In this document: in pieces, positions 8,583-54,388 of the stretch
Numbering within the stretch: position 1 is the first letter of the stretch
Layout of the letters: each line of letters begins with the position of its first letter
NCBI GenBank assembly: GCA_036630325.1
Contig: CP142731.1
Location: 372,001 to 436,000 of the forward strand
Length of the DNA stretch: 64,000 nt
From: Vairimorpha necatrix
Taxonomy: Eukaryota
Reading direction: 5' to 3'
The notes under the pieces: generated by a model
The model's input: only the letters and a program-made list of their open reading frames with translations
Databases searched by the model: none
Told to the model about the DNA's origin: nothing
Made by a program: the position numbers and the translations under genes

Positions 8583-8599
8583 TCCCCCCTCCAAGACGG

Positions 8600-25146: not shown

Positions 25147-27459
25147 ATGAATTTCGTTAAAATATTTGCTCTATTATTATTTATACAGTCATATATTAGA
25201 GTATATGACAAAGAAGAAATTAATAAGAAAATTTATGAGGAACTTAAGAAAATGATGATGAAAAAAATAGAAAAAAAAGAATATGTTGAATTTAATAGCA
25301 GCGAAGAATTTATTAAAGTACATATTTATCTTAATGAAGAAAATCACATTTTAAACATAAATATTGAGAATATCAAAACGCCTGAAGCCAATGCAAGCAT
25401 AGAGAAATTTGAATTTCATTATGATGATAAATCCATTAATGAAATTACTGAATATATTGAATTTTATGTAGAACAATATTCCCAAAAAAAAAATAATGAT
25501 TCTATAATTTTGGTCTACGATAGTGAATGTTTTGAAGCTTGTCCTATCTTGAAAGATGTCATAAAACATATTAAAAGTATTAACGAAAATAGAAAAATAA
25601 ATAATAAATGTTGGGGAGAATATTACAATTACATATGTGCAACAGATTGTTATCTGCTTAAAATGTTAATGGGCATAAAATGCGGTATTGTTTTGAACGA
25701 ATATGATATAAGTATATTTGATTTTCATTTTTATTACATTTCTAAATATAATGACAGATGCATAAGATTTTACATCAAGAAAGGAGAGTTATGTTATTTA
25801 TTTGAATTAAATATTGAGGAACTTAATATTGACGCACTAATATCTTTGAATGATACAAACATAAAGCTAAATAGTGATTTTGATGGGATTATTATAAATA
25901 AATTATTGATATTATGTAAACTATCTGATATGGATGATATTGAGAAATACGAGACAACAACAGAATATATTTTTACACCTAATATGATCAATATCCCCGA
26001 ATTTAACTTCAAACTTGTTATGGAATCAAATAAAATAAGCTTTAATCTTTCTTCTGGTACATACGAATATTTCATTATGAATAAATCAATTAATGAGGAT
26101 TGTAAATTATACATCGAAGAAAAAAAATTTCTTGATGTGAAATTTTTTTTTGAAAACACACCTATAACCCAGAACGTATTAGATGATTTTAAGGCAGTCG
26201 AATTATTGTTCAGAATATTTAGAAATAATAATAAAATAGAATTTCTGATAACTAAAATATTTAAAAATAAGGGTTCTGGCTTAAATTTAATATGCGCACA
26301 TTTACTGTTGTCTATGGAGATAATAAATCAAAATGACCATAATTTATTGTTAAGAGGCAATGAAGAATCAGAAAATGAAGTTATATCAAGGTGTATGGAT
26401 ATTATAAAGAAAAATTATTTAATAATTAATGGATTACAGTTCTATTTATTTAAAAAATGTTTACTCATGGAAGCAGCAAAATTTGTATGCGAAAATAATG
26501 TAGAAGATGATTTGGTATATAAAACTTTGAAAGAAATATATCATCTTAATGAAAAAAAAAATGTTACAAACATAATTGACTTAAGTACTAAAAAAGAAGA
26601 TATATATTTTTTGAAAACAATACAAGAAGCAATACTTACTTATAAAGATCATATTAGATATTACAAATATTCAATTTTGTCACATTTGTGCAGAATAAGT
26701 TTTATGTTTATAGAAATGGATGATTTTTTTGGTAATGCATACGAGCAATATAAACATCAAAAAGATAAGTTTATTCATTTTTTAAAATTGGATAAAAATG
26801 AGGTTGATAAAAATACTAAAATTATAATGAATAATCTATCGAAAAATACAATGATAGAATATAAATATCAAGAGAAAAGAAAACAAAAAAAGAAAACCTT
26901 CCAAAAGCTTAAAGAAATATTCGATAAATATTTATTAGGCGAGGAATTAAGTAAAATTATAGAAAATTCTCAAAATTTAGATATTAAAAATATTTATATG
27001 GAAAAAATAAGGTCAAATTTAGAAAATAATTTGATAAGTGAAGGAATACAAAAAATTGAAGCTGCTTTTTATAATTATAAACTGATTAAAGAAGAAAAAT
27101 ATTTTGGACAAATATCTATTGAATTAAAAAAGCTAATGTTCTCGGTGAGCTTAAACGAAGAAGAAGTATTTGAATATAAAATTAAACAAGAAGATTGTTT
27201 TAAGAAAAAAATATATATTGTACTAAAAAATAAGACAATAGAAGCAGGAAAAACGGAACTGTTGAAAATTTTTAAAATTTTATTTAATAGTTTCTTTGAA
27301 AAAGATACAAGTAAAAGAGAGAAGAATGAAAAATACTTGGAAACTATAAAATTGGTTTTGAAGAGGCAACAATTAGAAGATTTTATAAATGAGGAACTTG
27401 GTTTAGATCTCCATAGCGAATTGGTAAAAGTACTCAAAATGTATGACCAAACTGAATAA
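25147..27459 (+). CDS. Hypothetical secreted protein (770 aa)
   Basis: Long ORF, CCC before ATG, signal-peptide-like MNFVKIFALLLFIQS; no family recognised. Confidence 0.85.
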   Translation: MNFVKIFALLLFIQSYIRVYDKEEINKKIYEELKKMMMKKIEKKEYVEFNSSEEFIKVHIYLNEENHILNINIENIKTPEANASIEKFEFHYDDKSINEITEYIEFYVEQYSQKKNNDSIILVYDSECFEACPILKDVIKHIKSINENRKINNKCWGEYYNYICATDCYLLKMLMGIKCGIVLNEYDISIFDFHFYYISKYNDRCIRFYIKKGELCYLFELNIEELNIDALISLNDTNIKLNSDFDGIIINKLLILCKLSDMDDIEKYETTTEYIFTPNMINIPEFNFKLVMESNKISFNLSSGTYEYFIMNKSINEDCKLYIEEKKFLDVKFFFENTPITQNVLDDFKAVELLFRIFRNNNKIEFLITKIFKNKGSGLNLICAHLLLSMEIINQNDHNLLLRGNEESENEVISRCMDIIKKNYLIINGLQFYLFKKCLLMEAAKFVCENNVEDDLVYKTLKEIYHLNEKKNVTNIIDLSTKKEDIYFLKTIQEAILTYKDHIRYYKYSILSHLCRISFMFIEMDDFFGNAYEQYKHQKDKFIHFLKLDKNEVDKNTKIIMNNLSKNTMIEYKYQEKRKQKKKTFQKLKEIFDKYLLGEELSKIIENSQNLDIKNIYMEKIRSNLENNLISEGIQKIEAAFYNYKLIKEEKYFGQISIELKKLMFSVSLNEEEVFEYKIKQEDCFKKKIYIVLKNKTIEAGKTELLKIFKILFNSFFEKDTSKREKNEKYLETIKLVLKRQQLEDFINEELGLDLHSELVKVLKMYDQTE

Positions 27460-27515
27460 AACAATTTATTTTTTTTTTGTAAACATATAAATATATGTCT
27501 ATTTTAGCATGTTAT

Positions 27516-29414
27516 AATTCTTAGAAGTGACTGTTAAAAGGTGGCACATTGAGATAAAATCAGGATCGGAAACGATACTGAATAAGAAGATTGAAAGAGG
27601 GATATTACAAGGGGATTCCTTGTCGTTGCTTTTGTTTGTACTATGTATGGACCCGTTGAGCAGGAAACTGAATTCAACTTACCCAAAAGTAGAAATACAG
27701 ACCCACGAAAGTGTTTATGTAACAAACCAATTTCTATTTATTGATGACCTAAAGCTCCTCGCAGAGAACGATGACGTTTTAAAACTGATGAAAGAGGAGA
27801 CTAAAAAGGTTTTCTCTGCTGTAGGTTTAGAAATGAACAGGAGTAAGTCTGCAACTAACTGTAATGAGTGTAGTGAAGATGCAGTAGTACTAGAATACTT
27901 TTAAGGATACAAATACCTTGGAATAACAGAAGATGCCTCTAGTGCTATCAAAAGAGAGACTTTTGAAAAATTAAGAAGCGAGATCAACAGAGGGGTGAAA
28001 AACTGTGCAAGAATCAATTAGATGGTAAGAATATAATTCAAGCTATCAATGAGCATGCAATATCAGTAATAAACTATCATATAGGATTTATAAAATTAGA
28101 ACCAATAGATTTAAAAATCGAGATTTTGATATCCGACAGTTACTTTTTAAGTACCAGGTCCATCTACGGCAAGCCTGAAAGGAAAGACTATACCTACCTA
28201 GATCCGAAATGGGAAGAGGCCTCATAAGTATCGAAGATAGAGCCGGAAGTATGCTTCTGAATATATATAAAACCTTAGATGGGTCTAGAAATAGCTCACT
28301 AAGACGGGCAGCGATACTTAAAGCAGAAGCCGATAGCAAATCTAACTTGGATACAATAAGCGAGTATCTAAGGATTAGGTATAGCTTTGTAGGAGAGGTA
28401 ACACAGAAGATGCTAATAGAATTCTAAAAAGAAGCGCTTTACAACAAAATTAACATAAGGACAAACCATGGAAAGTTGTTTAAAGTTAGGGACAATGATT
28501 TAGTAAGCATTAGGGATTCTTCTACCTGGCTGGTTAAAGGAAACAATCGGGCTAGATCCGAAGCAATTTACTGCTTCCTACAGGATAGAAATATCTTCTG
28601 TGGGCAAGAGGGACAATGTCCCCATTGTGGATCTCATAGGAAGACCGTGGATCATTTAGCTACCAAGTGTGATCGAATGTTGGGTTTTGATTATATGAAA
28701 AGACACAACGAGGTAGTTAGATGCATTCATCTCTTACTATGTATTAAATATGGGTTTAAGAAGACAAAGAAAATACGTGGACACTCAGTACAAGGGATCA
28801 TGGAAAATGATCGTGCAGAAATAAGAGTAGATACGAGAATATCCACTAGTATAAAGGTGACCCATAATAAGCCTGATATTCTAGTGTTTGACAAGAAGAA
28901 GAAAGAAATTTTAATAGTTGAAGTAGGTATAACCAACCAGGATCGACTTACTATAGTTGAGAATGAAAAACTAAGAAAACATGACCTTCTTGCAAATGAA
29001 CTGGGACTAATACATAAATCCCGGACAAGAATAGTTCCTTATGTAATGACATGGGATGGAGTGGTGACCAAATATCACAGAAAGTACATCAGGGAGCTAG
29101 AAATCCAACCCTACCTGGAAGCATATATCCAATCTATTGTGATGAAGAAGACTCTAGAGTCCATCTCTTTGGAACGACGACGAGGATAAGATCAGGAGGA
29201 TGCAGAAGAAGTGGCTAGAGCTGTAAGCGCACTAGCGAATATGGCGACTGTTAAAGAAGTGGTGCCGGCAAAGGGGAATGAAGCTGAAAAAGTGAATAAT
29301 TCCACAGAAACCAAAGTCTGTGAAAAAGCCGAATCCCATGAGCGATACCGGGGAAAGCTGTGCTATGAATATCTAATCTTAATGCTAAATTAACTCAATA
29401 AATCTTTTATTTTT
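27516..29414 (+). mobile_element. 5'-truncated R4/Dong-like non-LTR retrotransposon (RT + CCHC + REL endonuclease), 14-bp TSD
   Basis: GILQGDSLS, FIDD, YKYLG, YLPRSEMGRGL, CPHC..H..C, RHNEV, KPDILVFD..E..K. TTTTAGCATGTTAT at 27502-27515 and 29415-29428. Stops and frameshifts. Confidence 0.93.
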
Positions 29415-32400
29415 TTTTAGCATGTTATTATTTGATTTCACAAAAAAAGATATCATGCTATACCTTATTATTTTAATAAACACAAATTTTTCTTAACAGT
29501 AATTTATAATAATAAAAAATTCAGCAATCAACTTAAATACCATGTATTGTAAAACTAATTGTAATGCGAGCTCCGCTTGCAGCTCGTTGCTTTTAAATTT
29601 TTTTTATTTTTATTGATTCTTATAAATCTCATGCGATGACGAAGAGCTAGAATATTCGCTTTTTTTTCATGATTGATTAATGTAATTGGTAATATTTGTT
29701 AGGATAAAGTAAATATATTATATCACTTTTCTTATTTGGACATTTATTCTTAGGCAGACACTTTATGATATGTAATTCGTCTGTCCCCGATGACGTATTT
29801 GTTTACGTCGACTATTTGGCTGTATTAAAATACGTCAGCCGATGTAAGAGGGTCTTAAATTATCGTAAAAGCACTTAATAAATGTCGTATGGAATAGTAA
29901 TATCGCTCTTTAAAATTTTCAACCCCCAACCCAAATTCTTTATCCTAATGAAATATATATAATGGGGGGGGGGGTTGTCATATTAAGTTAGATAAATTTC
30001 TTATGCTAATTTTCTCTGATTGTTTTATCTCGGCCTTTATTTACAACGTAATTCGCTTAAAAAATATAGATCTAGCATGTTTTGTGTTTTATTTCTTTTA
30101 CTGAAATTCGGCAAACGATTAAAGGTAACGATGATGTATAGATAGCCCTTGTTAACATATCATAACAATATTTTATTATTTTAAACGTATTTTTTGATGT
30201 TGGAACCAACACAAAAACAACTTATCCACATTTACAAGTATAATATTATATTAATTTATATGTGTCTGATTTTTAATAAACAGGAAAACAGTGACTTCTG
30301 TTTTTTTACGCATTAAATGAAGAATAATCGAAGATTTTTTTGTCAATTCCCATGGTTCACGAGTTTTTAGCATCTTTAGCATTTTAAAAATAGAGGTCAA
30401 CGAGAATTATTTGTATAGTAAAAATAAAATAGAGAAATTTGATAACTGAACAATGATGTAAGAAGGACAAAATGGATCTTAGCCCCTTTTTTATACTAGT
30501 TTTTTTGCTAACAGTAAATATAAATTTTATCTAAAATATGAATCAGAAGCGCTTGGCAAGTGTTTTCGTCGTTTTATATTGGAAAATTACAACTGCTCAG
30601 ATCTCATACCATATATTTATCAGTATAACAGGCTCCAATGTTTCTATTTGACTTTGGTTCCAGATAAATCGGCTATCATTTGTATCAATATCGAGTCCAA
30701 AAGTATTCACAGCAGATAAAATCAACGGTTACGGCGCATCCTTCGAAAAAAGATACCATTTACAAACACGGAAGACATCATTATATCACCATCTCGTACA
30801 CGCATTTTTGCCCCGCCACGTCATTAACTCGGCATTTTGTGAACTGAATTGATAATTTGTAATTCAAGTTCTGTAGCTTATTTCAAAATCCCTTATAAAG
30901 TGGTCGAACGAGCTTTATAATCTACTTCGCCAAGTATTAAATTTAACTAAAAGGATACCTACAACATAGACTGTCAAATGAATCTTGTAGCCCATGTAGT
31001 GAAGGCGGTCATTAAAGTAAAACCGAGTCTACATTATTTCTGTCATTTGATTGCGTTCCTAAAACAGAAGATGTTCTCTCTCTTTCTTAACTTCGAAAAT
31101 TGCATAACTAAAAAATGATGTCCATGTACACATTTCATAATTTGAATTATACAAATCCTTTTATAACTTATAATGTGCTGTTATTGTCGGAATTTTTTAC
31201 GTTTCTTTTTGCATTCTAATAATATCTTCGAACACTACACTAAAGCTGCTGTATTACATAAATGCATAATAAAAATTCATTTTCTAAATTAAAAATATCA
31301 TATAATCAAAACACAATTTGGTGATTAATTGTCATAAAACATTTAGTACAAGAGAAGACAATATAAATTTCGATTTTGTAAGAATGTTCATTTCGCCTAT
31401 TTCCAGATACGAGAGGTTATAATGTAATACATAATTCAAGGAAGATTTTTGCTAATTTCTAAAAAAATATGCATTTTTTATAAATGATGTAAAACTAGAA
31501 GAAACCTATATAAATTTATTTCGCTTACTTTACTTTTCCGAATATTTCCGACTAATAATTAAAGATGACAAGTAATGTTTTATATTATGAATTTTCCTTT
31601 TTTATGGCCTAAATATTCTAATTATGTACCAAAATGTTATCTGAATTAGAAGACATAATGCAATTGTGTGATAACTATAAATACTTATTGTTGAGAATAT
31701 ATATTTTTAATAAATTTAACCCCTAACTTACCTTTATCTTTAACACTTTTTTTTTTTTTTTTATTATTGGTCGTTTTTTTGTTGAACAACAAATATAAAT
31801 TGTATTTTAATTATGCTTGTATAATGATTTATAAATAAAATTTAAAAAGCAATTTTTTTAAAAAAATATAACGAAAATATGACCCGAACAATTTAAATAA
31901 GTATCTGAAGGTCTGAGAATGCCGAGATTATAAATCACTCTGAACACCGAATTTAGCGCATAATAAAAGTATCTCCAAATAATATTTTTATGAACTTTTT
32001 TCTGAGAAGACATTTAAAAGTTCGATAGAATGATAATGACGGGAGAATATAAACCAAAGATAAAATATGAATACCTCTCTTAAGCTCAATCTTTTACGTC
32101 TAAGATGAAAAATTTCGTTTATTATTTTGAATGATTTATTTGATAGAACTTGTACATCTTAGTTTTAATTTCGAGCTTAATTTTTCCTTAAAAAATAATG
32201 ATTTCTGCAAAAGATTGTAGGACTTAAACGTCTAATTTTGATTTTTTGTATGTTTATGGAGATTTTTACGTATTTGATAATAATACCTCGTTTATATAAC
32301 TATAATTTAGTATTGTTTTATATAAAAGATTTATTTAGTGAGAATTTTATATGCAGATTATACATTTATAATACATACGATTTATGTATAAAAGAAACTT

Positions 32401-32751: not shown

Positions 32752-33424
32752 ATGTTTTTTTGCTTTTTAATAGTGCTGAAACGTAGTAATTTTTGCGATA
32801 TTGGAACAACAGAAAAAATTTAACCTCAAATTTAATATAATACCCGCGATAGACACCAATATTCAATCCAAAAATATGTTTATAATAATGCGGGTGTCAT
32901 TAAAAAATACAACGTATTTCTAAAGACACATTATTCCTATATGATGAAATTTTTAATATTCAATGAAAATGTATCGGATTTGTTATATTGTGATTATGAA
33001 TATAAAGATGATAATAATATGTTATTTAGAAATTAATGTGAAACAATTGAGATAAGATATTGTTTAACTAATCAGAAAGGTGGTTTAATTTTACTGATTT
33101 CAAAAAGGTTAAAAGATATTTAACAATATTGAAGATTTGAAGTCAAAAAAAAAGTTTACGCCGACCATTTAATATCCAAATTTTTTTCTAAATATCAAAA
33201 TTGCGCTTATACATCATATCGACTGTGTGATATCACAAAAAGTTTGTATGCACAGATGTGCAAAAAATCTAAATATAACCCACATATATACATGATACTT
33301 TATTTAACTAATTTTGTAAAACGTTAACGAAAAACTAGATTTTAGACAATTTAAAACAATATAATGATAAATAAATTTTTTTAGAAAACAAATATTATCA
33401 TAATCTTGACTTGAGAAAATGTGG
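32752..33424 (+). pseudogene. Pseudogene paralog of 39159-39848
   Basis: Nucleotide alignment to 39159-39848 (e.g. ATACAACGTATTTCTAAA, TATCGACTGTGTGATA); frameshifts and stops; CCC before ATG lost. Confidence 0.85.
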
Positions 33425-34397
33425 CAAATGTGGCAGATAACTTTGGAAGATTGTCTAAAATGAATAATTATGTTTTTCGCCGTTGAGAGATCTTATAAGA
33501 ACTCATATTGTTTTAAAAACATTTGTTTGTTTGTTGCATAAGAATAATGACAAAAAAACCTAAGATGTTATTAAGTAAATCCTAAAATTTCTCAGAAAAA
33601 AGTAAAAAACGGTTGATTAATTATATCATAAGGTTTAGAAGCTTGTTCTTAAATTATAATACTATAATTATACAGATAACTGTGATATTATTTTATATAA
33701 AACATATTTGTGGACGGCGAATAGTCGGACGGAACAGATTGTCTTCTTGACATCTGCAACATAATAATGATAAAAAAAAAATTTCAAAATTAAATAGAAT
33801 GCATCTTCATATTAACGAGGATGGGCAATAGTAAAAAGTATACATTAAAACCTCATATTTCGGTTAAAGTCAACACATATGATTATAAAACGATGTAAAA
33901 TTCGTGTAGATGTCTTGTAAACTATAAGTTGATATCCTCTTAAAATAATAAGTAAATTTTTTATTTTTCTACTTTTGACATATCTTTATGAATTTAAAAG
34001 AAATACAAAGTAGTGTTTAAATACAGTAAATTTCTTGTTGCAATTTTAGAATCTAAAATTGATATTACTGAACCCCCACATGAACTCTAAAATTAGTTTT
34101 TGTTCGTTTTCAAACTTTGATTTCAATGAGACAGTCTATTTTGAAAATTATACAATCTCGCGCTTCGTTTTTTTTAAAACTTTTTGTTGGTTATATAAAA
34201 AAAATTTATCTAATACTTTTGTAATTTAATTATTATTCGACTCTAATTAATTTTTTAATCTCTTATATATTATTTAAATAAATTGTATTCATAGCGATAA
34301 TACATATATAAATATATAAAAAATGCTACAATGAATGTTCTAAATTAAATAGGAATGAAAGTAAAACTACAATAAAGAAAGTAAATAAAAAAATTTA

Positions 34398-35060
34398 TTA
34401 AAGTATAAAAGTTTGAACATATTTAGAAAACATAAGTTCGGCAGGTGATATGAATTTTAGTTCTTCTTCGGTGGTCTGTATAGATTTTCCGAGAAGTTTA
34501 TTAATCAAATTTTCTTCATATTGGATTTGTGAATCAAAAATGCAAGCTTCAATGAGTAATCTATTGTTAAGTATTATAAATTTGTCTCGTTCACTCAAAT
34601 TAAATAAAACATTTCCATCAACATTTTCCACGGAAAACAATAATAACTTTTTTAACCAATCATTTCCCGTTGATTTTTCTTGATTCTTTTTTAAAGGAGT
34701 TTCCGATTTTGTCAGTTTTAAATCAAGTAATCTATACTCTAACGCATTTTGATTTATAGAATTTCTTTGGTTTTTGAAAACAACAACACCACTTTCAAAT
34801 GTTTTATAATTTTTTAATATTGAATAAAAAGAAATATATAATAGACGCAATATTTCCTTATCAATATCTGGATTAAGTTTTTTTATTTTGTTGATACGTG
34901 ATGTAATATTTAATTCAGTTATTCGATCTGGATATATTTTTATTCTATTTTTTTTGCAACAAAATTTTATAAATTTAAAAATTAGATACAAACAAATAGC
35001 AACAAAACAAATCAAGCATGCATCTAAAATCAACTCTTTTGTCACTGACCCGATTTTCAT
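34398..35060 (-). CDS. Hypothetical protein with N-terminal TM anchor (220 aa), paralog of 40578-41243
   Basis: Intact ORF, CCCC before ATG, strong protein similarity to the paralog. Confidence 0.85.
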   Translation of the reverse strand: MKIGSVTKELILDACLICFVAICLYLIFKFIKFCCKKNRIKIYPDRITELNITSRINKIKKLNPDIDKEILRLLYISFYSILKNYKTFESGVVVFKNQRNSINQNALEYRLLDLKLTKSETPLKKNQEKSTGNDWLKKLLLFSVENVDGNVLFNLSERDKFIILNNRLLIEACIFDSQIQYEENLINKLLGKSIQTTEEELKFISPAELMFSKYVQTFIL

Positions 35061-35676
35061 AGGGGTTAAATTTTACATTATGTAACCCGCCAAAAACTTA
35101 CCTCCTTTTTCAATAGTTGATCGAAGATAATTTTTTTTCTTTTCAAATTTGAAAAGTATTTTGATTTGGGGTTGCTATGTTTTGATTTAAAAGTTTAGTT
35201 TATTTCGTAAAATCATCAAATTGTTAGTTAGTGCTTATTAAGTAATACAACAAACTAGTGTCTTAATAGAAAATATAATAACAAAGTTACTTTATCATAA
35301 ATTAAAAAAATCGAAAATGTCTGTATGTAAAAAATATTGTTGTCTTATACAATAAAAATATAAAGCCATACTTGTCAGTAACTAAAAGAGAGACTTCGTA
35401 ATGGAATTTAAAATTGTTTTATATTCATTGTCGCGCACCCGGCGCGTCCGGATTTTTTTGTAAAAAAATTGTCCATAAGCATAGAATGTGTTTAATCTAA
35501 CTTTTCATTTGGGGTTTAAAATGTATTATAGACAAGGTTCTATACAAAATGAGATTATTTTTATAGAAACACTTTACTAACACACATTTACATTATGTAC
35601 ATGAAAACATGAAATTTAGATTTTTAAATTAAAAATAGTTTTTTTCAAATTGGGGCATGCTTTATGTGATTTTATA

Positions 35677-36470
35677 GAGGTGCCATTAGCACAGTGGTAG
35701 AATGCAATGCTTCCATTGAGCAATGGCTGAATTCGATTCCCAGGGGCACCAAAATTGTTTCTACTTTCTATGATGCAGTTGGAACAACTCAGATGATGAA
35801 AATGTCCACGATAATCATTAAGTTGATTCAATGAAACTTGTGTGTGTCCAGCCACAAGGGGATTAGCATCTTGTGTAGAAACGCACCTCAAGGCCAAAAA
35901 GCAGTATCACTCTTTGGTGACTTAATGATACATAAAAGTATCTAATGGGTACGGCCTAGTTGGAGCCCATGGCTGGTGCACTCTAGAGTGGGATTCTAGA
36001 GCTAACTAAGAGACTAGACGAAGTAGGGCAATAGAAGGTCTCATGGACCCTATCCTACATGATTCTGTAACACGGTGGCCGAAACTAGTGGGAGACTGGT
36101 GGTCAACGCAGCCCAATAAAAACGCCGGGCTGGGGATGTGGTCGTGTAAGGAGCCGTGTGTGCAATACGGATGATTGTAGGGACCTTTGAGTCAGTACGA
36201 TGATGTCTCTCCTCGGGTTATAGATAACCATGCCCATTAAGTATATCCGCTGTGAGGTCACTCTGGACGCGATTTGAGGTATAAATGGAAAGTGTTCTCC
36301 TGGAGCCAAAGTCCAATGGATACGGCGGAGCTTGCTGCACCGGCAAGTGTATGGAGGGAGTTTTAGTGAGTAAGAATCTCACAGTACCAGTTGGATGAGG
36401 ATCACACCCAAATCCCTCTGGTCCCTATGTAAGGTTTCTCCCTACCTCTTACTTGCAAGAAAAAAAAAAA
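35677..36470 (+). mobile_element. tRNA-derived SINE (794 bp) with poly(A) tail and 14-bp TSD
   Basis: tRNA-like head 35679-35751: GGTGCC/GGCACC acceptor stem, A-box TAGCACAGTGG, B-box-like ATTCGATTCC. A-tail at ~36460-36470. TATGTGATTTTATA at 35663-35676 and 36471-36484. Confidence 0.9.
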
Positions 36471-36898
36471 TATGTGATTTTATAAGCGCGTTAAGATTAT
36501 AACAAAGAGCAGTTGTCTAATAATTCTTTAAGCTATTTATTAATTTGCATATGCATCAAAAAAATTATTTTTACAAATTTATGGGTACATTGCATTCCAT
36601 ATTTTTTATTTCATTTTACATTAATTAGCCCTATTTTTTTTGTTTGATTTTTCTAGATTAGCTTCAGAATTTCTTAGAACTTAATTAAACCTCATTTTAT
36701 AAGAATTTTTTAAACAATAAAAAAAATAAAAAGAATTTTATAAATTAACTTACACAATTTTTTCTACATGAAAAAGCTTTAACATCAAGTATTGATTATT
36801 ATAAATAAGTTAGAAAAATTTAAAAAAGAAAAATTGATGTTGTGTCTAATTAAAAAGTTTTAGAAAGAAATGAAAAAAATTTGAGTTCACAAAATAAT

Positions 36899-38258
36899 TG
36901 AGTTTTGCATTTTTTTGTCCAACTTTTGCATTTTTATAGTCCAACTTTTGCATTTTTATAGTCCAACTTTTGCATTTTTTATAGTCCAACTTTTGCATTT
37001 TTTATAGTCCATTTTTTAGAAAAAAATAACAAAAAACCCAGAATTTGATATATAATGAACAATTAATAGAATTATGTTGCAAATAATTACAACCTTATTT
37101 AATTTTAAAAACTCGTTTTTCTGTCTTGCCATTTCCAGTCATCTTACCATATTAGTGCAGAAACCATTACACGAAAGGCTAAAACTATCGTTTACCACTT
37201 GTTCCAAATCCATTTCTACTGTATTATTTAAGTTTCGTATAGCACAAAACCTCGATTTTATCATAGAAAAAAATTCTTTAATAGGATTAAGCTGTGGGGA
37301 ATATGGGAGCAAAAAATTATAAGATATGCCTAATTCTCTTAGCTACTCAAAACTTCTTTATATGATGAAATTTGGCATTATCTATTATTAAAATCTTTTG
37401 AGGATTTGTTTGAAAAAAATTTACAAGATTTCTTATAATAAATTCGACGAATGGAGCTGAATTATATGCGCCCCTTTTCATTTCGTATGCTATAATATTC
37501 GATTTTGAAATCACGCAAAGACAACTTAAATTGTTGCCTCGATTTGCGGGGACTGTTTAGAATGCTTTTTTATTTTTATAAGAAAACCCATAAGTCCTTG
37601 TGGTATGGGCATTAAATCCAGTTTCGTCCAAAAAAATCAAATTTTCTAGTGAATACCCCGATATTTCCATGGCATATTCGACTCTTTTATCAATTTTGTC
37701 CTGAATATTACGCTCTGCAGGAATTAGAGATAGTCTTTTTCTTGTTATATTGAGATATTTCAACTTTCAAGAAATAGTCAACAAAGGCATTGAAACATTA
37801 GCTATTGTATTTAGCTCTTCTTTGATTTCACTTTGAATCTTGTCATTACTGCGTGCAATAATGTTTTTTAGCACAAGGTCAATAGGCTTTAATACTCTAG
37901 GAGATAAAACTTTAGAACGATTTATTAAATTTGCAGAAAAAATAGATTCTCCCTCAACATTTTCCTATGGCTCATCCCAACTGTTTTATAACTTAAATCT
38001 AATGTCGTTGCAATATTTGTACAGGTCAAATTTTCGTTTTTTATTGTCTTTCAATCAGTTTTAAGACATCCGGAGTGACTGTAGATCTCGCTTTTTTAGG
38101 CATAAGGGAGGAGGGGTTTAAAAAAAGGCCATTGAGATAAAAAAAAATGGACTATAAAAATGCAAAGTTGGACCATGCAAATGCAAAATTTGGACTATAA
38201 AAAATGCAAAAGTTGGACCATGCAAATGCAAAAGTCGGACTAAAAAAATGCAAACCCC
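36899..38258 (-). mobile_element. Tc1/mariner-IS630 superfamily transposon relic with tandem-repeat TIRs
   Basis: IFLDETGF, IIDNAKFH, PYSPQLNPI on the minus strand. ~22-bp units TTTTGCATTTTTATAGTCCAAC repeated at the left end and inverted at the right. CCC-ATG at 38103. Left end approximate. Confidence 0.88.
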
Positions 38259-39158: not shown

Positions 39159-39848
39159 ATGTTTTTTGGCTTAATAATAGTTTTGAAATGTAGTAATTTC
39201 CGCGATCTTAAAACGACAGAAAAAAGATGTAAACTTAAATTAAATATAATACCTGTCATAGACAACCAATCGTCAATTGAAAAATATGTTTATAATAATG
39301 CTGATGTCATTAAAAGATACAACGTATTTCTAAAAACACATTATTCCGATATATTGAAATTTTTACTATTCAATGAAAAGCTATCAAATTTGTTAAAAAG
39401 TGATAATGAATATAAAAATGATAATATTATTATTAATTTAAAAAACAATGTGAAACAATTGAGGAAGATATTGTTTAACGAATCAGATAGATGGTTCAAT
39501 TCTACTGATTTTAAAGATGTGAAGAGATATTTAAACAACATTGACGATTTGAAAATCAAAAAAAAAGAAGACCTGAAGTCAAATATGTTTATATACAAAT
39601 ATTTGTCTAAATATCAAAATTACGCTTATGAATTGTATCGACTGTGTGATAACACAAAACATTTGTGTGCCCAAATGTGTAAAAAATCTAAATATAAAAC
39701 ACATTTTGAGGCAATAATTTATTTATCTAATTTTGTAAAACGCGTTAAACCAAAAACTGTAACTTTAGATGATTTGGAAAAATATATCGATATCTTAATC
39801 TTTTTGGAAAACGAATATTTTTATAATTCCGCATTAGAGAATATGTGA
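39159..39848 (+). CDS. Hypothetical secreted protein (229 aa)
   Basis: CCCT before ATG, short hydrophobic N-terminus MFFGLIIVLKCS, pseudogene paralog at 32752. Confidence 0.8.
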   Translation: MFFGLIIVLKCSNFRDLKTTEKRCKLKLNIIPVIDNQSSIEKYVYNNADVIKRYNVFLKTHYSDILKFLLFNEKLSNLLKSDNEYKNDNIIINLKNNVKQLRKILFNESDRWFNSTDFKDVKRYLNNIDDLKIKKKEDLKSNMFIYKYLSKYQNYAYELYRLCDNTKHLCAQMCKKSKYKTHFEAIIYLSNFVKRVKPKTVTLDDLEKYIDILIFLENEYFYNSALENM

Positions 39849-40577
39849 CAAAAGTTTGAGAAACTTCAAAAATTGCCTATAATAAATAATTGGTTTTTTT
39901 TTATTTTTTTAGAACTCATTGTTTTTTTTTTATTATTTGTTTGTTTATTAAAATGAGTAATAATGACGAATAAACACGCAAGATTGATAAGTAAATATCC
40001 ATATTTTTAAAGAATTTAAAAATTAATGAATACTATAATGTTTATAACTCTTATTTTTGTATTTAATTCTAGGTCTTAACAGGCAACTGTGCGTGTATTT
40101 TATGCTGAACAAATGATTAATCTGCGATGTAAATTTTAAGTGGATGTTTTTGTAAAATTAAGTTGATATTATCTTAAAAAAAATATTATTTCTTAATTTT
40201 TACTTTTAATCTGTTTTTATAAACTAAAAAAAAAGATACAAAAAACTTGATGCAATTTTAGAATTTTTTATTGATCTTTCCGAAGCTCTATATCTATTCT
40301 GTAGAATTGACAGTTTTGAATATTTTTAGATAGGTTAATTAAATTGATGCAGTCAACTTCGGAAATTTAAAACTAAGTGTTTTATTTTATCAGAAGCATA
40401 TTTTTTAGATTTAATACGAAAACTTATACAAATACTTTTTATATTAACTTAATATTCGACTTTAATTTAATTTTTTACTCTTGAATATTGTTTAGATAAA
40501 TTGTATTTTTAGCGATGGTGCTAGGTGTATATAAATGCTGTAATGAATGTATCTAATTATAAACGGATAAAAAAAAA

Positions 40578-41243
40578 CTATTTAAGTATAAAAGTTTGAA
40601 CATGTTTAGAAAACATAAGTTCGGCAGGAGATATAAATTTTAGTTCTTCATCGGTAGTCTGTATGGATTTTTCAAGAAGTTTACCAATCAAATTTTCTTC
40701 ATATTGGATTTGTGAATCAAAAATGCAAGCTTCTATAAGATATCTATTGTTGAGTATTAAAAATTTGTCTCGTTCACTCAAATGAAATAAAACGTTTCCA
40801 TCAACTTTTTCCACAGAAAATAATAGTAACTTTTTGAACCAATCATTTTCCGTAATTTTTTCCTGATCAATTAAAAAAGGAGTTTCCGATTTTGCCGGTT
40901 TCAAATCAAGTAATGTAAACTCTAATGGAGTTTGGTCTTCAGAATTTCTTTTGGTTTTGTAAACAACTACACCACTCTCAAATGTTTTATAATTTAATAA
41001 TATCGAATAAAAAGAAATGTAAAGTAGACGTAATGTTTCTTTATCAATATCTGGATTGTGTTTTTTCATTTTGTTGATATGTGATGTAATATCTTTTTTA
41101 CATATTGAATCTATATTTATCTCAATTGTATTTTTTCGGCAACATGATCTTATAATTTTAAAAATTAAATATAAAACAACAGTGCCTAAACAAGTTAGGC
41201 CCGCTTCTACGAACAACTTTTTTTTTTCTGTATCGATTTTCAT
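40578..41243 (-). CDS. Hypothetical protein with N-terminal TM anchor (221 aa), paralog of 34398-35060
   Basis: Intact ORF, CCC before ATG. Confidence 0.85.
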   Translation of the reverse strand: MKIDTEKKKLFVEAGLTCLGTVVLYLIFKIIRSCCRKNTIEINIDSICKKDITSHINKMKKHNPDIDKETLRLLYISFYSILLNYKTFESGVVVYKTKRNSEDQTPLEFTLLDLKPAKSETPFLIDQEKITENDWFKKLLLFSVEKVDGNVLFHLSERDKFLILNNRYLIEACIFDSQIQYEENLIGKLLEKSIQTTDEELKFISPAELMFSKHVQTFILK

Positions 41244-43606
41244 TAAGGGTAAAAATATACATCATTAAAACCCGCCAAATGATTACCTCCTTTTTTTTTA
41301 ATTTGCTTTTTTAAGAAATTTCTTTTTTTATACAGGAGTTAAATAAGTAACTTTTAATATGGAACTTTGTGATGAATTGTTTATTTTGTAAATAACAAAT
41401 TATTAGATAGTGATTATCAAGTAATACCCCAAATTAATTTCTAAGGTAGTAGTTTCAGTAACAAAGTTACTTAAATATTTTCTTATCAAAGGCGGATAAT
41501 AGATTTGGGTTAATATTATTGCTTAAATTTTAACTTAGCTTCCTTACCGATATTACTATAAATTTTTTATTTAGCCCTGTTTCTAAGAGACTAAGCAGCA
41601 AGGACAAGAAGGGGCAAGTAAAATTACATAGTAGAATAATGCTTATAATATGGTATAATTTGTTTACTTTGGGATTTAAGGGTAACAATAAAAAGCTTTT
41701 ATGATGTATTTGTTAAAAATTAGTATTTAAAAGATTTCAAAATTTATGAAAATATATATTTAATTTTTTTTGTTCTTGTGTCGTTATAATAAATTATTCT
41801 ATTGTTTTAGATATTTTCAATTAGTTTAGGTGAATAAAGCAACTTTTAGGTATAAATAATATTGTTTTATAAAAATACATTAATTTGTTTTTTAGTAATT
41901 TTGGGGGGTTTTCGACGGATGAAAAAGAAAATTGAATTTTCGTGCTTATTAAGCTTTCTTAGCATATCTTACAATTTTATAGGTCGTGTTTATATTTTTC
42001 TTCTATTTTTATAATTGTTTTTTTTTATTGCATAATGTCGTTTAAGCAATTTAACTCACTTATAATATTGCCTGTACAAATATTGCAAGACATATCTTTA
42101 TTGTAAATATCAATGTACAATAAAGATATGTCTTGATCAGAAGAGCAGAAAAAAAAGAAAAATATATTTAAAATGAACCATTTTTTAGTTTTTTTGTAAC
42201 TATGCGTGTTATCATGTTTTTTTTGTTTTTTGCGCCTCCGAATTTTTTCGCTTTGATTTAAAAAAACAGGTCATAAATCTCCTTATATATATCGGTTGGA
42301 TCTAAATTGAAAATGCACCTTATTGTTTATTTTTGCATAAATTTCTACGCCGTTTTTGTTAATTTAAAAAAAAAGATTCCGAGTTGCAATTTATTGTTAC
42401 TTGATGAATACAATAAGATATGTGTGAGTTAATCGGTGCGCCCTCACATATGAAAACAATTGGAAAAACTAACTAATTGTTTTTGTTATCTAATGTGAAA
42501 AAATGTTCTCTTAATGAAAAAAACGCAAAAGAGAAAGAAGAGTTACATATGATTTGTCATTATTCTATATGAACATATTAAGAAAATATATAAATTGTAT
42601 ATTGTCGATTAAAAGATTGCAAAGTAAAAAATATAATTAGTAAAATATATTTATTTTTTATGGAACATTCCATCGAGATTGAGTTCCGTAATTCTTTTTA
42701 TAACATAGAAAATCTTTGTAGTTTATATCGAACAAAAGAAGTTGTTTCTTATAGCTTCTTTTAATTATAAAGATAACATGTATACATAATAAATATAAAA
42801 GTTTTTTTTTATAATCCCATGTTTTCTTTACTTTGTCATGTTTTACATGTGCCGTGTTTATAATTCAAATTAATGAATTGAGTTCTTCTTTGTGTAAAAT
42901 GCAATGTTGTCGTACTAAATTATTAAAAATAAGCTATATTGCAACAAATTTCTAAGATTTTTACTAATCATTGATAAAAAGATTTGATAATAATTCTAAT
43001 ATAACCACAAAAAATAAAGTTAATAGAGATTTGGAAAAAAAAATTGATTACAAATACAAAAAAAATAAGTAGTTATTATGAATTGATTTTGATAACAGGT
43101 TTATTTCGTAATTACAATATTCTTTATTTATAGTATCGCTTTTTAAATGATAAAAATTAGTTTAATTTGCATCTAGTATCTAAATCTTATTTCTCTGACG
43201 ATTGAAGTAGATATAGATTTATTGGTTTTTTTTATTTAATTAAAAATTAGTACTAGTTTAATAGTAAAAAAATAAATTAAAAAAATATTGTAGTTTAAGT
43301 TATTTTTGAAAAATGAAAAATTTTTTAAACTCAAAATAAAAAACATAGCTTTAATTACTACAGAGTTGCTTATTCTTTACTTACATTTTAAATCTATATA
43401 TCTAACCCCCCTCCCCTTTTTAATATAGAAGATATATTTAGTGCATCATCTGTACTCAATTGACCTTAATAAAATATTTCTAAAAACTTAAATATGTTTA
43501 ATACTTCTATATTGTAGTGATGTATTTACATGCAATTCGATAAATTAAGGAGTAAATTCGATATAGGAGAACATTATTATTTATAATCTATAATGATAAA
43601 AACACT

Positions 43607-44440
43607 ATGAGAAACAGAAATTTAATCTTTTTTGGAATATTTGTCGCAGGGTTTATAGCACACTTATGTTTGTTATTATACTTGAATGATATAAAATTGG
43701 GTGAAATTTATTCAATATATACTGATAAAGAACAGAATGGGCAACTAGAAGATCAAGCAAAATTAAAACAAGATCGGGATGTCTCTTATAGTGATGATAC
43801 TCAGCTAGTAAATGTAATGAATCAGTATATGAAAATGCATAGAATTAGAAAAAACGATAAAAAATTACAATACTCTATTACCAACGATTTGATAACAGTT
43901 TTCTGCACGAACGAAGATGATGATTTACCTTTTATGATAAATTTATTGTCGCAATATCACAAAACTGGCATGTTTTTTTTACCGCAAAATAATTTAATGT
44001 CAAATATAATTAATAGATCATGCATACCTCAAGAAGATTTCATTCAACCTTTATTTAAGATGAGTTATGTGAGATTCTACAATTTAATATGTACATTTCT
44101 TTATGTACAAAAGAAATTTATACAATTAGAATATATTTGTACACCGATATTTGAATATGATAAAACTGAATCCAATGAAGTAGATAGTAAATATAAACTA
44201 CCAAATAATATTAATCAAATAATTAAATGGATTGATATAATGTATTATCCAATGGGAATTGATAAAATATACATGAATAGAGGAGATGAAAAGGTAAAGG
44301 AAAAATTTTTAAAAAATGAAATCTTGAACGAAATGAATAGAGAGTTGCTTATATTAGATCGTAGATTTTATGTAAAACTAAGTGTATTAGATTATCTAAT
44401 AGCAACATATAGCCAATGTGATTATATTTTTCCAAATTAA
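43607..44440 (+). CDS. Hypothetical signal-anchored protein (277 aa), paralog of 48975-49829
   Basis: N-terminal hydrophobic helix; shared blocks LLSxYHKT, PQNNL, CTFLYV, YICTP, WIDxMY, LDYLxAT. Confidence 0.85.
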   Translation: MRNRNLIFFGIFVAGFIAHLCLLLYLNDIKLGEIYSIYTDKEQNGQLEDQAKLKQDRDVSYSDDTQLVNVMNQYMKMHRIRKNDKKLQYSITNDLITVFCTNEDDDLPFMINLLSQYHKTGMFFLPQNNLMSNIINRSCIPQEDFIQPLFKMSYVRFYNLICTFLYVQKKFIQLEYICTPIFEYDKTESNEVDSKYKLPNNINQIIKWIDIMYYPMGIDKIYMNRGDEKVKEKFLKNEILNEMNRELLILDRRFYVKLSVLDYLIATYSQCDYIFPN

Positions 44441-45849
44441 TGATAAAAAGTACTAAAACAGAGAACTTGAAGAAAATCTTACATTTTTGATGTTTTTTTC
44501 TAAATAAACATAAAAATACTAATTATTTTACTTTTGATCATAAGACGACCTACAGCAAGCAGCTTATTCAACAATCTAATAGGCAAATTTTGAAATAAAA
44601 AACAAAGCAGAGGTATAGAACAAGTCGTCGCTTGATGCATGCATAGCCTTTCTTAGTATTGCAATCTCGCAGACAATTTCTAAAACGTAGAGGCAAACTA
44701 TTCTTACACGACATACTGGGATTTTTCATAAAAAACAAGGATAAATTTTACTATAGATGGAATGTTTAGTGTTAAATAACTACATTTTTTACTTTCTTAA
44801 ATTCTAGCATTTATAGGATAAAAATAAAATTTTTTAGTTCCTTTGAAAACTTTTTACATAGTTTTTACTTTGGTATCGATATTATTAGTATGATATGGAG
44901 TAAAATTATATATCTAACTACAATTTAAGTAACAAAGCGAATTAATATACTTCTTTTATTAAAAAATAAAACATACCTAGGTTTTATCACAAATATGATA
45001 TATTCTATAACTTATATGGGCTCGCTTAAGACGAAAGAATTCCAAGCAATGATGTCTAATAACGCTAAAACCATATTATATAAAAATAAAAAAATCAATC
45101 TTATAATACTACTTACATAGAGACGTACAAATACAAGGCATTTGTTGCGTCGAATAAAAGAAAGGCAATATCAATAAACCAACTTACACAATTTAAAACA
45201 CTAAACAAATGAATTAAATGCTATATGTATGAATGCAAGGTGGAGAACTTGACAATGCTGCTCTTTATTCATAGGATTTGATTTAAAAATTCTCTGTGCT
45301 GTTCTTTAAAATTTTTAAGAGGTAACAAAGTGGTTCTTTATGTGTAATTCCAAGAAAGAAATATTTACCTTCTATATGACGCAAACAAATGCTATAACTT
45401 GTCCTAGAGTTACAAGAAAATATCTACTTTATAATAGGTACAATAATTTTCACTAGTGTGAATGCTATTCGTAAGCTTTTATTAAAAAACATTATAAATG
45501 AATTACATTATGAGATTAAACGTGAAATACGTTGCTACAGTAGTTTTTCTGGAATTAGTGTATAAAAGTCCACACATCCAAAAAATATAGATCAGATAAA
45601 ACCCCATTCTAAGTAAAATTCTTGTCTGTAAGCATACTACATGTTATTGAGCTCTTTACAAATTATACATACGGGCTCAAATCTAGAAGTAAATATGCTA
45701 TGCTTGCTCTTATAACGCAAAGTAATTTAGGTTAAATAGACAATTTATCTAAAGAATGAAAATACATGGACAATATATAAATTAGCCACAATTTTTAAAA
45801 AAATCAAAAATGTATATGTAGCTTTAAAATTAAAAAGAATGTTAAAATA

Positions 45850-47960
45850 CAGTCACTATGGCTTAAAGTAGGTAACACGAATACCAAGACAGAGAGTAAG
45901 TTATGTGCCCTACAAGACCGAAATCTATTTAATGGATCGATTGGAAATTGCCCCCATTGTAATAAATCAGCAAAGACCGTGGATCATCTGGCGACGAGGT
46001 GCGAAAAAATGCTAGGACACGATTATATGAGAAGGCATAATGAAATAGTGAAATGCATCCACCTACTACTGTGTGAAAAAATATAAAGTGCAGTTTAAGA
46101 AGAGATTAAAAAACCACTCAGTACAACAGATAGTTGCCAACAAAGATGTGGAAATAAGAATAAACACGACGATAAAAACAGACATAAAGAAAAAATATAA
46201 TAAACCGGACATTGTCGTAGTAGATAAAAAGAACAAATTGATACGAATAATCGAAATAGGTGTCACATCACAAGAGAATCTACAGCAAGTAGAAAACGAT
46301 AAGTTAAGAAAGTATGATGTCCTTGCGAACGAACTGAGCCTAATATATGGTTTTAAAACAGAAATAATTCCCTACGTAATCACTTGGGACGGTATAGTGA
46401 CTAAGTTTCACAAATCTTATACCACAAGACTTGAAATCCCTAAGAACGTAGAAGCGTACATCCAGATGATCACGCTAAAAAAGACGCTAGAAAGCATTTC
46501 TCTTGACTACCGAAGGAGAGGAGACGAAGCCGATGTGGAAAGAACTATGGAGACGAGAAGCCATAACAAGCAGGAGACGCCAACGCGGAATTTATCCTTG
46601 TTAAACTATAAATATAAACTTCGGCGCTACTTAAAAATTCGCACCCCCCTAAAAAATACGTTCACTGAAAAAAAATTATTTTGTATAAAATGAGATAAAA
46701 TCAAATTTTAAAGGATTTTTTTTCCGGGGGGTGCGAATTTTTAAGTAATGGTATTTTGAACGTGAAATTTTTTTATTTTATCTATCCCTTATAATGAACA
46801 GAATGATGGACGAAATGCTTCAATTCAATCCATACAATCCTATTTTCACTGATAATGACAGGGCAATCGACTACGGATTGAAGAACAACTTGTTATATCC
46901 TTGTATTCCCTGTACTAATGATCAGTGCAAAGGAATTATGTTTATTAGAAACATATCTTTGTTTTCTCAAGGAAAGGGGTAAAAATGTAGCAAAAAAATT
47001 TGTAAACGAAGATGTTCATTAAATAAAGGTCCTAAATTTGAATCTTTAGATATTGAATTGAAAAAAATTCTTCGTTGCATTTATTGTTGGTGTTTGTCAT
47101 ATACTAATTTTCAGGCCATCAACATGTGTGAAACTTCTGAACCAACATATATTTCTGTAAAAGAAATAATAATGGAAACAATTTCCAAGTGTTCTACTGT
47201 TGTTACAATGATAGGTGGAGTTGGCCAGAGGATACAAATAGACGAAACAGATATTTGTAATGGAATTATTTATCGAATCCGTCTAGTCGATTGGATTCTG
47301 AACCTGGAATTCAGTGGATAATAGGAGGTGTGTTGGAAGGAAATTTTAGAGAGTTTTTTGTGGAACTAATACCCAATAGAAAATGGGAAACGATTTTACT
47401 AGTATTAAAAATATATGTAAAAGTAGGCACGGATATAGTAACTGATGGTTATCCATCCTATTTACGTGCTATAAGTGAATTTGGTTCTCACCATAGTGTG
47501 GTAAATCACTCTATGGGATTTTGTAATGAAGAAGGACAAAATACAAATTATGTAGAAAATATGTGGTCGCATCTTAAGCATGATTATAGAAAGCGTGGAG
47601 GAATAAATAAAATAAGAATTAAATGTTGGTTAGATGAGTTTAAATGGAAAAAAGAAAATATAGAATATTCAAAACCATTTACAATCAAATTAGCCTTCGT
47701 AAAAATAATTGATATTTTTTCTATGTTGTAGTAATTAAATTTTTGAACTAAATAATATGTTATAACTGTTTTTTTTAAATATTTTAACTTTTGTAAATTC
47801 ATATTTTCATAAAAATATTGTTTTAAATATAATTTTAAGGGTTAAAAATATTTTTTTTTATATAAATTTAATTGGTCAATGTAATTTTTTTTAGGGGGTG
47901 CGAATTTTTAAGTAGCGCCTAAACTTCAATAAGCATGCCCTAATTAAATTCATTTACTTA
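45850..47960 (+). mobile_element. 5'-truncated R4/Dong-like LINE (second subfamily) with a Merlin nested in its 3' UTR
   Basis: LQDRN..CPHC..TVDHLATRC..RHNEI, KPDIVVVD, LRKYDVLANEL. The 3' UTR resumes after 47919 (CAATAAGCATGCCCTAATTAAAT) and matches ~61449-61470. 5' boundary approximate. Confidence 0.88.
46623..47919 (+). mobile_element. Merlin DNA transposon (third family), disrupted transposase, 8-bp TSD TAAACTTC
   Basis: TIR GGCGCTACTTAAAAATTCGCACCCCC; IQIDET, IVTDGYPSY, NTNYVENMW; CCC-preceded ATG at 46794. Confidence 0.95.
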
Positions 47961-48974: not shown

Positions 48975-49829
48975 ATGAAAAATGAAATTTTATCCTGTTT
49001 AGGATTATTTATCGCAGGTTTGTATACACACTTATGTTTAATTTTATACTTGAATGGCAAAAAATTAAATGAAATATTCTTTATACACACCAATAAAGAA
49101 GATAATGAACAACTAGTTGATGAAATTATAGTAAATCAACCAGAGAATGTCTCTATAAGAAATGATGAACTCTTAGAAATATCAATGAATGCCTATACTA
49201 GAATGTATAAAAATGTAAAAAACAATAATAATCTACAATATTCTATCAATAATGGTTCTTTAACAGTAGTTTGTACAAACGAAGGAGAAGATAAACTTTT
49301 TCTAATAAATTTATTATCAGAATACCACAAAACTAGTAGATTTTTCATACCACAAAACAATTTGATAACAAGTTTAATCAAGAAATCTGTTAGACCCAAA
49401 GAAGAATATGTTCAACCATTTTTTAAAATGAGTTCAGTTAAAATTATACATTGGATTTGTACATTTCTTTATGTACACAAGGAATACACACAATTATCAT
49501 ATATTTGTACACCAGATTTCCAATATATTGAACCTAAAACAATGGAAAATTTAGAGTTTTATAAAAAATCAGCTAAAAATAATCCGGCTAAGCTGTCATT
49601 GATTGCATGGATTGATGTAATGTATCATCCGATTGAAATAAAAAGATTCTTCCAATTAAGATTTAAGCGTCGATATGATAAAAAAAATTATTTGCTAGAT
49701 ATTACATTAAAAAATTTAGATGAAAAAATACTTCTTACAGATAGCACTGGTGTAATGGAAATGAGTATTTTAGATTATTTGCTAGCGACACATCTTTTAA
49801 GTGATCCTAATTTTAAAGAAGATGAGTAA
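48975..49829 (+). CDS. Hypothetical signal-anchored protein (284 aa), paralog of 43607-44440
   Basis: Intact ORF with conserved blocks shared with the paralog. Confidence 0.85.
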   Translation: MKNEILSCLGLFIAGLYTHLCLILYLNGKKLNEIFFIHTNKEDNEQLVDEIIVNQPENVSIRNDELLEISMNAYTRMYKNVKNNNNLQYSINNGSLTVVCTNEGEDKLFLINLLSEYHKTSRFFIPQNNLITSLIKKSVRPKEEYVQPFFKMSSVKIIHWICTFLYVHKEYTQLSYICTPDFQYIEPKTMENLEFYKKSAKNNPAKLSLIAWIDVMYHPIEIKRFFQLRFKRRYDKKNYLLDITLKNLDEKILLTDSTGVMEMSILDYLLATHLLSDPNFKEDE

Positions 49830-52530: not shown

Positions 52531-52612
52531 GGCAGTGTGGCCGAGTGGTTAAGGCGGTTGATTCGAAATTAATTAAGTTTATCTTGCGCTGGTTCGAATC
52601 CAGCCACTGTCG
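52531..52612 (+). tRNA. tRNA-Ser(CGA)
   Basis: GGCAGTG/CACTGTC acceptor stem, TGGCCGAGTGG A-box, anticodon loop TTCGAAA, long variable arm, GGTTCGAATCC, downstream T-run. Confidence 0.93.
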
Positions 52613-54378: not shown

Positions 54379-54388
54379 AACAAAATTG

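Follow-up and report, generated by a model that had tools for sequence, protein, structure and literature searches.

The 794-nt non-coding segment at positions 35677–36470 (+) of the 64-kb window (the whole stretch of DNA analysed here) is very probably a full-length and recently inserted member of a family of tRNA-derived SINEs. A LINE would have copied it by target-primed reverse transcription, and the genome that it lies in is that of a microsporidian of the Vairimorpha/Nosema group. Its anatomy can be read directly from the DNA and comprises a tRNA-like head, promoter boxes, a non-coding body, a predicted structured 3′ end, an A-tail and a target-site duplication (TSD), with an older copy of the family nearby. 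Three features by which tRNA-derived SINEs are recognised, namely a tRNA head with boxes, no coding capacity, and an A-tail with a TSD, are present. Together with the lack of an ORF, the promoter boxes, the A-tail and the TSD also support two claims of a preliminary description of this DNA, that the element is a Pol III-type, tRNA-headed, non-autonomous retroposon, and that it integrated into an AT-rich genome by retrotransposition. The parts of the element, in order along the window, are as follows.

35663–35676 (no strand): 5′ copy of the TSD, TATGTGATTTTATA, 14 bp
35679–35751 (+): degenerate tRNA-like head (cloverleaf), detected by ARAGORN in relaxed mode, beginning 2 nt past the first base of the SINE
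35687–35697 (+): A box TAGCACAGTGG of a putative type-2 Pol III promoter, an exact match to the consensus
35730–35740 (+): B-box-like AATTCGATTCC, with consensus positions 1–2 unmatched
35752–36329 (+): non-coding body, GC 38–56%, with no detectable family or excess structure
36330–36459 (+): 3′ tail domain, with a predicted multibranch fold closed by a long-range helix
36361–36364 (+): T4 run, the only one inside the SINE and a possible premature Pol III stop
36460–36470 (+): A11 tail, an eleven-A run read from the sequence
36471–36484 (no strand): 3′ copy of the TSD, TATGTGATTTTATA, holding a T4 run that could terminate a Pol III read-through transcript

Target-site duplication and boundaries

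The ends of the element are sharply defined. The sequence TATGTGATTTTATA occurs exactly twice in the 64-kb window, at 35663–35676 and 36471–36484, and these two copies match perfectly (14/14 bp) and adjoin the first base of the SINE and the final A of its tail. The perfect 14-bp TSD and the A-tail that had been described beforehand are thereby confirmed, both at the exact ends of the element. Exact 14-mer direct repeats are not unusual in this AT-rich DNA, with 19 k-mer pairs lying 300–1500 bp apart in the window and between 0 and 11 in 30 Markov controls, and the TSD is persuasive because it is placed exactly against head and tail.

The base composition rises and falls together with the same two ends. 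The SINE has a GC content of 46.1%, compared with 24.2% and 27.9% in its 2-kb flanks and 27.4% in the window, and the GC excess over the flanks reported in the preliminary description is therefore confirmed. Upstream of the element lies one arm of a segmental duplication:

32855–35292 and 39265–41472: ~2.4-kb segmental duplication, 68–89% identity, ending ~370 bp before the SINE site

This neighbouring duplication stops at ~35292, short of the SINE insertion site, and so provides no paralogous empty site. Each arm carries one of two paralogous ORFs (220 and 221 aa), and a Pfam scan of the 220-aa copy found no family.

The tRNA-like head and promoter boxes

In relaxed mode, ARAGORN folded the head into a 73-nt cloverleaf whose acceptor stem has 6 bp and whose anticodon position reads CAT. 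The default run on the window did not call the head and found only a tRNA-Ser at 52530–52613. Relaxed ARAGORN calls are weak alone, because the loosest setting gave four candidates in an 860-nt extract. The Rfam tRNA model, whose gathering score is 29, gave the head 12.9 bits (E = 2.6, 101 nt) and the real tRNA-Ser of the window 57.8 bits. A functional tRNA gene was considered for the head and rejected on these grounds (12.9 bits against a gathering score of 29, and no call by default ARAGORN). A tRNA score so far under the Rfam threshold, and a cloverleaf that needs the relaxed ARAGORN mode, also speak against the SINE reading; a low Rfam tRNA score is what is expected of a degenerate SINE head.

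As read from the sequence, the putative promoter boxes support the head independently of ARAGORN. The A-box consensus has two matches in the 64 kb, one in the head and one in the real tRNA-Ser, where 0.22 would be expected. An A-box core and a B-box core at tRNA spacing have a single match in the window, in the head itself (0.01 expected). The relaxed cloverleaf and these pattern statistics bear out the original observation of a tRNA-like head with A and B boxes, and the head is best read as a real but degenerate tRNA derivative whose amino-acid identity cannot be named. The label ‘Gly-like’, which the preliminary description had attached to it, finds nothing in our analysis to support it.

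Coding capacity and structure of the body

Of the stop-to-stop frames in the SINE, 22 reach 25 aa or more; the longest has 96 aa and extends into the flank. None of the seven longest frames had a Pfam match at E < 0.1. A non-coding body, as first described, is thus borne out by a longest frame of only 96 aa that has no Pfam match. Rfam assigned the body to no family, either at gathering thresholds across the whole window or at E ≤ 10 in a 1.2-kb scan.

The predicted folding energy of the whole SINE, −251.1 kcal/mol, is close to that of shuffled sequences (−239.6 ± 10.8 kcal/mol; z = −1.06), with 4 of 20 shuffles as stable, and the impression that the element is rich in short hairpins fails for the element as a whole. 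When the fold was assessed in seven sub-windows, six were unremarkable (z from +0.49 to −1.67). The suggestion that the body is a structured RNA did not hold up, as these six sub-windows fold like their shuffles and an Infernal/Rfam-type scan found no family. The element had also been thought long for a SINE. In a comparison with fungal-style lengths, its 794 nt fall within a range of 700–900 bp, and ~800 bp is normal among the fungal SINEs covered in the text of PMC5063351.

The 3′ tail domain

The seventh sub-window, 36330–36459, was the only one to beat all of its shuffles (z = −2.98; 0 of 200 as stable). Its predicted fold is a three-way junction, and we propose that it is the tail recognised by a LINE. 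The best Rfam match in a scan of the tail only was RF00524 (R2 RNA element) at 36355–36443 (+), spanning model positions 90–204 of 212 with 19.2 bits and E = 0.042 (226-nt search) against a gathering score of 38. In a 176-nt scan the same family reached 13.7 bits (E = 0.68), and the match was absent from the 1.2-kb scan and from the whole-window Rfam scan. The helices in the covariance-model alignment are those predicted by free energy, and comparable short-stretch Rfam scans gave best E values of 1.3–1.4, for unrelated families. Because the score is half the gathering value and the match is missing from the larger scans, we treat the modelled resemblance to RF00524 as a lead and not as membership. 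The RF00524 model was presumably built from insect R2 elements.

The 3′ motif quoted in the preliminary description was found at 36361–36399. Its idea of a LINE-like 3′ end gains from the sub-threshold R2 element match (19.2 bits), a lead that points to R2 and not to the R1 clade named there. We also considered whether the tail could be an R2 RNA element in the strict sense and rejected this, the score being 19.2 against 38 bits, the flanks being AT-rich intergenic DNA, and the window containing no rRNA according to Rfam. Two properties of this region count against the SINE reading. The T4 run at 36361–36364 could halt Pol III ~110 nt ahead of the end of the SINE, and the R2-element match is sub-threshold.

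A second, decayed copy

The preliminary description had proposed a check of copy number, and within the 64-kb window this yielded one further copy, partial and decayed:

30500–30877 (−): old AT-decayed family copy, element positions ~431–794, detected by nhmmer and local alignment

This copy lies 5 kb from the SINE, on the minus strand, and shares its 3′ ~360 nt. In blastn and nhmmer searches against the rest of the window, element positions 431–752 align to 30848–30536 (nhmmer E = 3.1e-9). The old copy ends in TTACTGTTAGC followed by A7 (at 30500), and the young copy ends in TTACTTGCAAG followed by A11. Local-alignment shuffle tests gave z = 17.3 for the 3′ part and z = 3.4 for the 5′ 430 nt, for which 1 of 200 shuffles scored higher. 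A head was not established in the old copy (z = 3.4; nhmmer E = 4.9), which is either 5′-truncated or has a 5′ part decayed past recognition. A second copy without a convincing head could instead represent the 3′ terminus of some related element, and this argues against the SINE reading. No third copy was found in the window with a two-copy profile (next best E = 7.2), and five LINE proteins used as tblastn queries revealed no remnant of LINE coding sequence next to the old copy.

The young and old copies are identical at 208 of 385 aligned positions (54%). Where they differ, G/C in the young copy stands opposite A/T in the old one at 100 sites, with the reverse at 45 sites, a pattern that would be expected from long decay under the AT bias of the genome. 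The decayed state of this second copy, 5 kb away, indicates that the SINE family has long been resident in this genome.

We also considered a one-off event in which no SINE family is involved, a LINE reverse transcriptase copying a polyadenylated RNA, such as the 3′ end of a LINE or some non-coding RNA, and switching template onto a tRNA. A chimeric retrocopy of this kind would account for a tRNA-like part lying exactly at the 5′ end of a copy with a TSD and an A-tail, and for homology to the second locus that is limited to the 3′ ~360 nt. A fresh chimera would, however, have a near-intact tRNA, and the head scores 12.9 against 57.8 bits for the real tRNA while the TSD and A-tail are undecayed. 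Rfam also offers no parent RNA family for the body. We therefore regard this origin as very unlikely; because the head is degenerate while the TSD and A-tail are undecayed, a SINE master gene fits better than a fresh tRNA chimera. The sole AATAAA/ATTAAA in the SINE is at element position 439, with no poly(A) signal near the tail. A processed pseudogene or chimeric retrocopy was rejected on the position of this signal, the lack of coding remnants and the degenerate head.

LINEs in the window

LINE machinery is present in the genome, in the form of three 5′-truncated non-LTR copies of one family found in the window by tblastn:

17241–18250 (+): non-LTR copy, 5′-truncated
27437–29240 (+): non-LTR copy, 5′-truncated
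45838–46540 (+): non-LTR copy, 5′-truncated, more divergent

Each copy has a reverse-transcriptase fragment (RVT_1) and a C-terminal region with a CCHC motif and a KPD-x14-E motif, which we take, reading from R2-type elements, to be a restriction-like endonuclease (RLE). A PDB sequence search with this C-terminal region returned noise only. In the Pfam listing for full-length relatives of the LINE, reverse transcriptase is the sole LINE-related domain and no APE endonuclease domain appears. These relatives include V. apis proteins with 83% and 81% identity, another protein with 84% identity, and Hamiltosporidium proteins with ~60% identity. Matches also occur in Polistes, Megalopta, Octopus and moth assemblies, where they could reflect transfer or microsporidian contamination of the assemblies. 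Close downstream of the third LINE copy, a 21-bp sequence recurs exactly and in direct orientation 1167 bp further on (46727–46747 and 47894–47914); the pair may mark the ends or the TSD of another insertion.

A search suggested in the preliminary description, for a LINE sharing the 3′ tail of the SINE, found none within the 64-kb window. The aligned 3′ ends of the three LINE copies have neither an A-tail nor similarity to the SINE tail, and the LINE 3′ UTR has no R2-element match in Rfam. That the window holds only two copies of the SINE, and no partner LINE with a matching tail, counts against the SINE reading.

The LINE family bears on a further reading, in which the element descends from an R2-like, RLE-type LINE that lost its interior and became non-autonomous. 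Its transcription would then rely on Pol II or on read-through, and its tRNA-like 5′ end would be captured or fortuitous rather than a promoter. The weak match of the tail to the R2 3′ element, the LINE family of the window, read as RLE-type, and the long body (~700 nt) with its internal T4 run would all be consistent with such a derivative. Yet the element resembles none of the LINE sequences in the window, the old copy aside, and contains no ORF remnants, and its A and B boxes lie at canonical tRNA positions directly at the 5′ end. We consider this reading very unlikely and retain that of a tRNA-derived SINE.

Composition and a possible host origin

No other feature of the window approaches the GC content of the SINE; genes have ~30%, the LTR element 32% and the LINE copies 31–38%. 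The CpG observed/expected ratio of the SINE is 0.51 and its TpG ratio 1.32, compared with a CpG ratio of 0.88 for the window, and CpG was as scarce as this in 1 of 5000 shuffles.

A foreign source is one possible explanation of this composition, in which the SINE family, or a GC-rich subfamily of it, reached the parasite by horizontal transfer from an animal (probably an arthropod host), after which the LINEs of the parasite mobilised it. Besides a GC content (46%) far exceeding that of every other window feature, and CpG and TpG ratios that set the element apart from the window, this explanation can draw on the tail, which among database entries resembles only the R2 3′ element, a model presumably built from insect sequences. 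The relatives of the window LINE in Polistes, Megalopta, Octopus and moth assemblies point the same way, with contamination a possibility there. Transposon exchange between microsporidia and animals is moreover documented in the texts of PMC3614468 and PMC4202319.

The composition signal is not specific to foreign DNA, however, because the resident LINE shows the same trend, its younger copy being GC-rich (GC 38%, CpG 0.62) and its older copy GC-poor (GC 31%, CpG 0.88). The old copy of the SINE, 54% identical and AT-decayed, implies long residence and counters a single recent arrival, although a transfer that was older, or that happened more than once, would still be compatible with it. Taking these points together, we think a host origin unlikely. 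A fuller version, in which a GC-rich, CpG-depleted SINE with an insect-R2-like tail crossed from an animal host, possibly repeatedly, and is still mobilised by an RLE-type LINE, we find more doubtful still.

Searches for relatives outside the window were made by proxy. A phmmer search with a 91-aa minus-strand frame of the SINE against 1,835,955,588 representative proteins returned no matches, which is weak evidence, since this is one frame covering one third of the SINE and gene callers rarely call such frames. A 35-nt degenerate pattern kept in both copies had no matches in bacterial and archaeal genome contigs. An 18-nt pattern matched 51 loci in such contigs, about the number expected by chance, none of which was similar beyond the seed (best nhmmer E = 0.15). 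Three short SINE motifs had no match in full-text literature. These protein, prokaryotic-contig and literature proxies could hardly have yielded a host-side homologue.

Genomic surroundings

The window is crowded with mobile elements, comprising Ty3/gypsy, ISXO2-type DDE elements, a TIR element and the non-LTR copies. Those not yet described are:

~4850–12000 (−): pieces of Ty3/gypsy-type LTR retrotransposon, with RT, RNase H and integrase zinc finger
11826–12957: ~1-kb element with terminal inverted repeats
15365–16405: ~1-kb element with terminal inverted repeats
54361–55440: ~1-kb element with terminal inverted repeats
36903–38254: TIR element of ~1.35 kb with 76-nt TIRs made of short subrepeats, 430 bp downstream of the SINE

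Within the Ty3/gypsy region, segments of 63–82 nt are repeated at 4859, 8014, 8529 and 11623, which suggests two nested or tandem copies. Two of the three ~1-kb elements contain ORFs, at 12198–12785 and 54503–55339, that encode an ISXO2-like DDE transposase domain (PF12762); the window holds two or three elements of this type. The PF12762 domain is typical of Merlin-type elements. The interior of the TIR element downstream of the SINE (37250–37829, −) weakly resembles in tblastn (28–50% identity) the C-terminal portion of a protein from Hamiltosporidium with a listed DDE_3 domain, and the element is probably a decayed Tc1/mariner-type transposon.

Among the genes, the kinase domain of a TTK/Mps1 kinase (52705–54378) is 81% identical to that of Vairimorpha bombi, and the more distant named matches are to other microsporidia, which places the window within the Vairimorpha/Nosema group. 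Two ORFs, 43607–44440 and 48975–49829 (+), encode proteins of 277 and 284 aa whose hydrophobic N-terminal segments look alike, and they may represent a lineage-specific membrane or secreted protein family; Pfam found no family in the 277-aa ORF (43607–44440). A 760-aa ORF rich in Ser, Thr and Asn (13061–15343, −) contains five 90-nt repeats at 13801–14253.

The intergenic DNA holds short tandem arrays with units of 26, 20 and 27 nt, the listed loci including 58458–58587 and 60410–60655. A short GC-rich inverted repeat followed by seven T's (35430–35460), 220 bp upstream of the SINE in AT-rich intergenic DNA, looks like a terminator. Also upstream of the SINE, the 65 nt at 35262–35326 are 75% identical to the reverse complement of 52598–52665, which comprises the 3′ end of the tRNA-Ser(CGA) gene (52530–52613) together with its downstream flank.

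Mechanism and relation to known elements

For a tRNA-derived SINE of this anatomy, we infer transcription by Pol III, a partner LINE and current activity. Pol III would start from the A and B boxes inside the degenerate head and transcribe the body and the A-tail. A LINE reverse transcriptase/endonuclease would then recognise the structured 3′ tail, the A-tail or both, nick AT-rich target DNA and copy the RNA by target-primed reverse transcription, an insertion that would leave the 14-bp TSD.

The closest parallels in architecture are with fungal SINEs. PMC5063351 names in its Introduction mgsr1 (800 bp) and Mg-SINE (472 bp) in Magnaporthe, Foxy in Fusarium, and Egr1 (700 bp) and EGH24 (900 bp) in powdery mildew. 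Like these, the Vairimorpha element has a small-RNA-derived head with Pol III boxes, a non-coding body in the range of 0.5–0.9 kb, an A-rich 3′ end and a TSD. Fungal SINEs also have low to moderate copy numbers in small genomes; the comparison is one of published descriptions. Unlike them, the Vairimorpha SINE lies in a microsporidian and has a GC content ~20 points over that of its genome.

The abstract of PMC5786205 sets out the head and tail model of SINEs, in which the 3′ tail is common to the partner LINE, and that of PMC5135761 names a ‘stringent’ SINE/LINE type. Like the SINEs of such tail-sharing pairs, the element has a structured 3′-terminal domain directly before its tail; unlike in those pairs, the 3′ end of the LINE in the window is unrelated and has no A-tail. 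With the R2 3′ UTR element (RF00524) it shares a three-way junction, the same helices, short sequence matches, the strand and the 3′-terminal position. It differs from R2 in lying outside rDNA, in its A-tail, 14-bp TSD and tRNA-like head, and in its score (19.2 against 38 bits).

Transfers from hosts to microsporidia are described for piggyBac and others in Nosema bombycis (text of PMC3614468) and for Merlin, mariner, piggyBac and LTR elements in Anncaliia (text of PMC4202319). The Vairimorpha SINE resembles these cases in being a mobile element of unusual composition in the transposon-rich genome of an insect parasite. The Nosema bombycis and Anncaliia cases differ from the SINE in resting on protein phylogenies or on high identity with animal copies. 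We found no transfer involving a SINE in the texts of PMC3614468 or PMC4202319.

For the N. bombycis genome, a table in PMC3614468 lists SINE at 0.18% and LINE Dong-R4 at 1.04%, and Table 1 of PMC4202319 gives 4–15 LINE families for Nosema species. The word ‘SINE’ does not occur in the main text of PMC4202319, the main microsporidian transposon survey. In the main texts searched, that single table line in PMC3614468 was the only mention of SINEs in microsporidia that we found.

If a host origin were true, host–parasite transposon exchange would extend to non-autonomous Pol III retroposons. In the fuller version, with mobilisation by an RLE-type LINE, the element would be the first SINE shown to move between a host and a microsporidian, and part of the first characterised microsporidian SINE/LINE pair. 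As a tRNA-derived SINE, the Vairimorpha copy is a well-formed example of a familiar class in a group of parasites whose SINEs are barely described. The intact TSD and A-tail of this young copy imply recent LINE reverse-transcription activity in a compact parasite genome, and the SINE may be used for tracing that activity and as a marker of strains or lineages.
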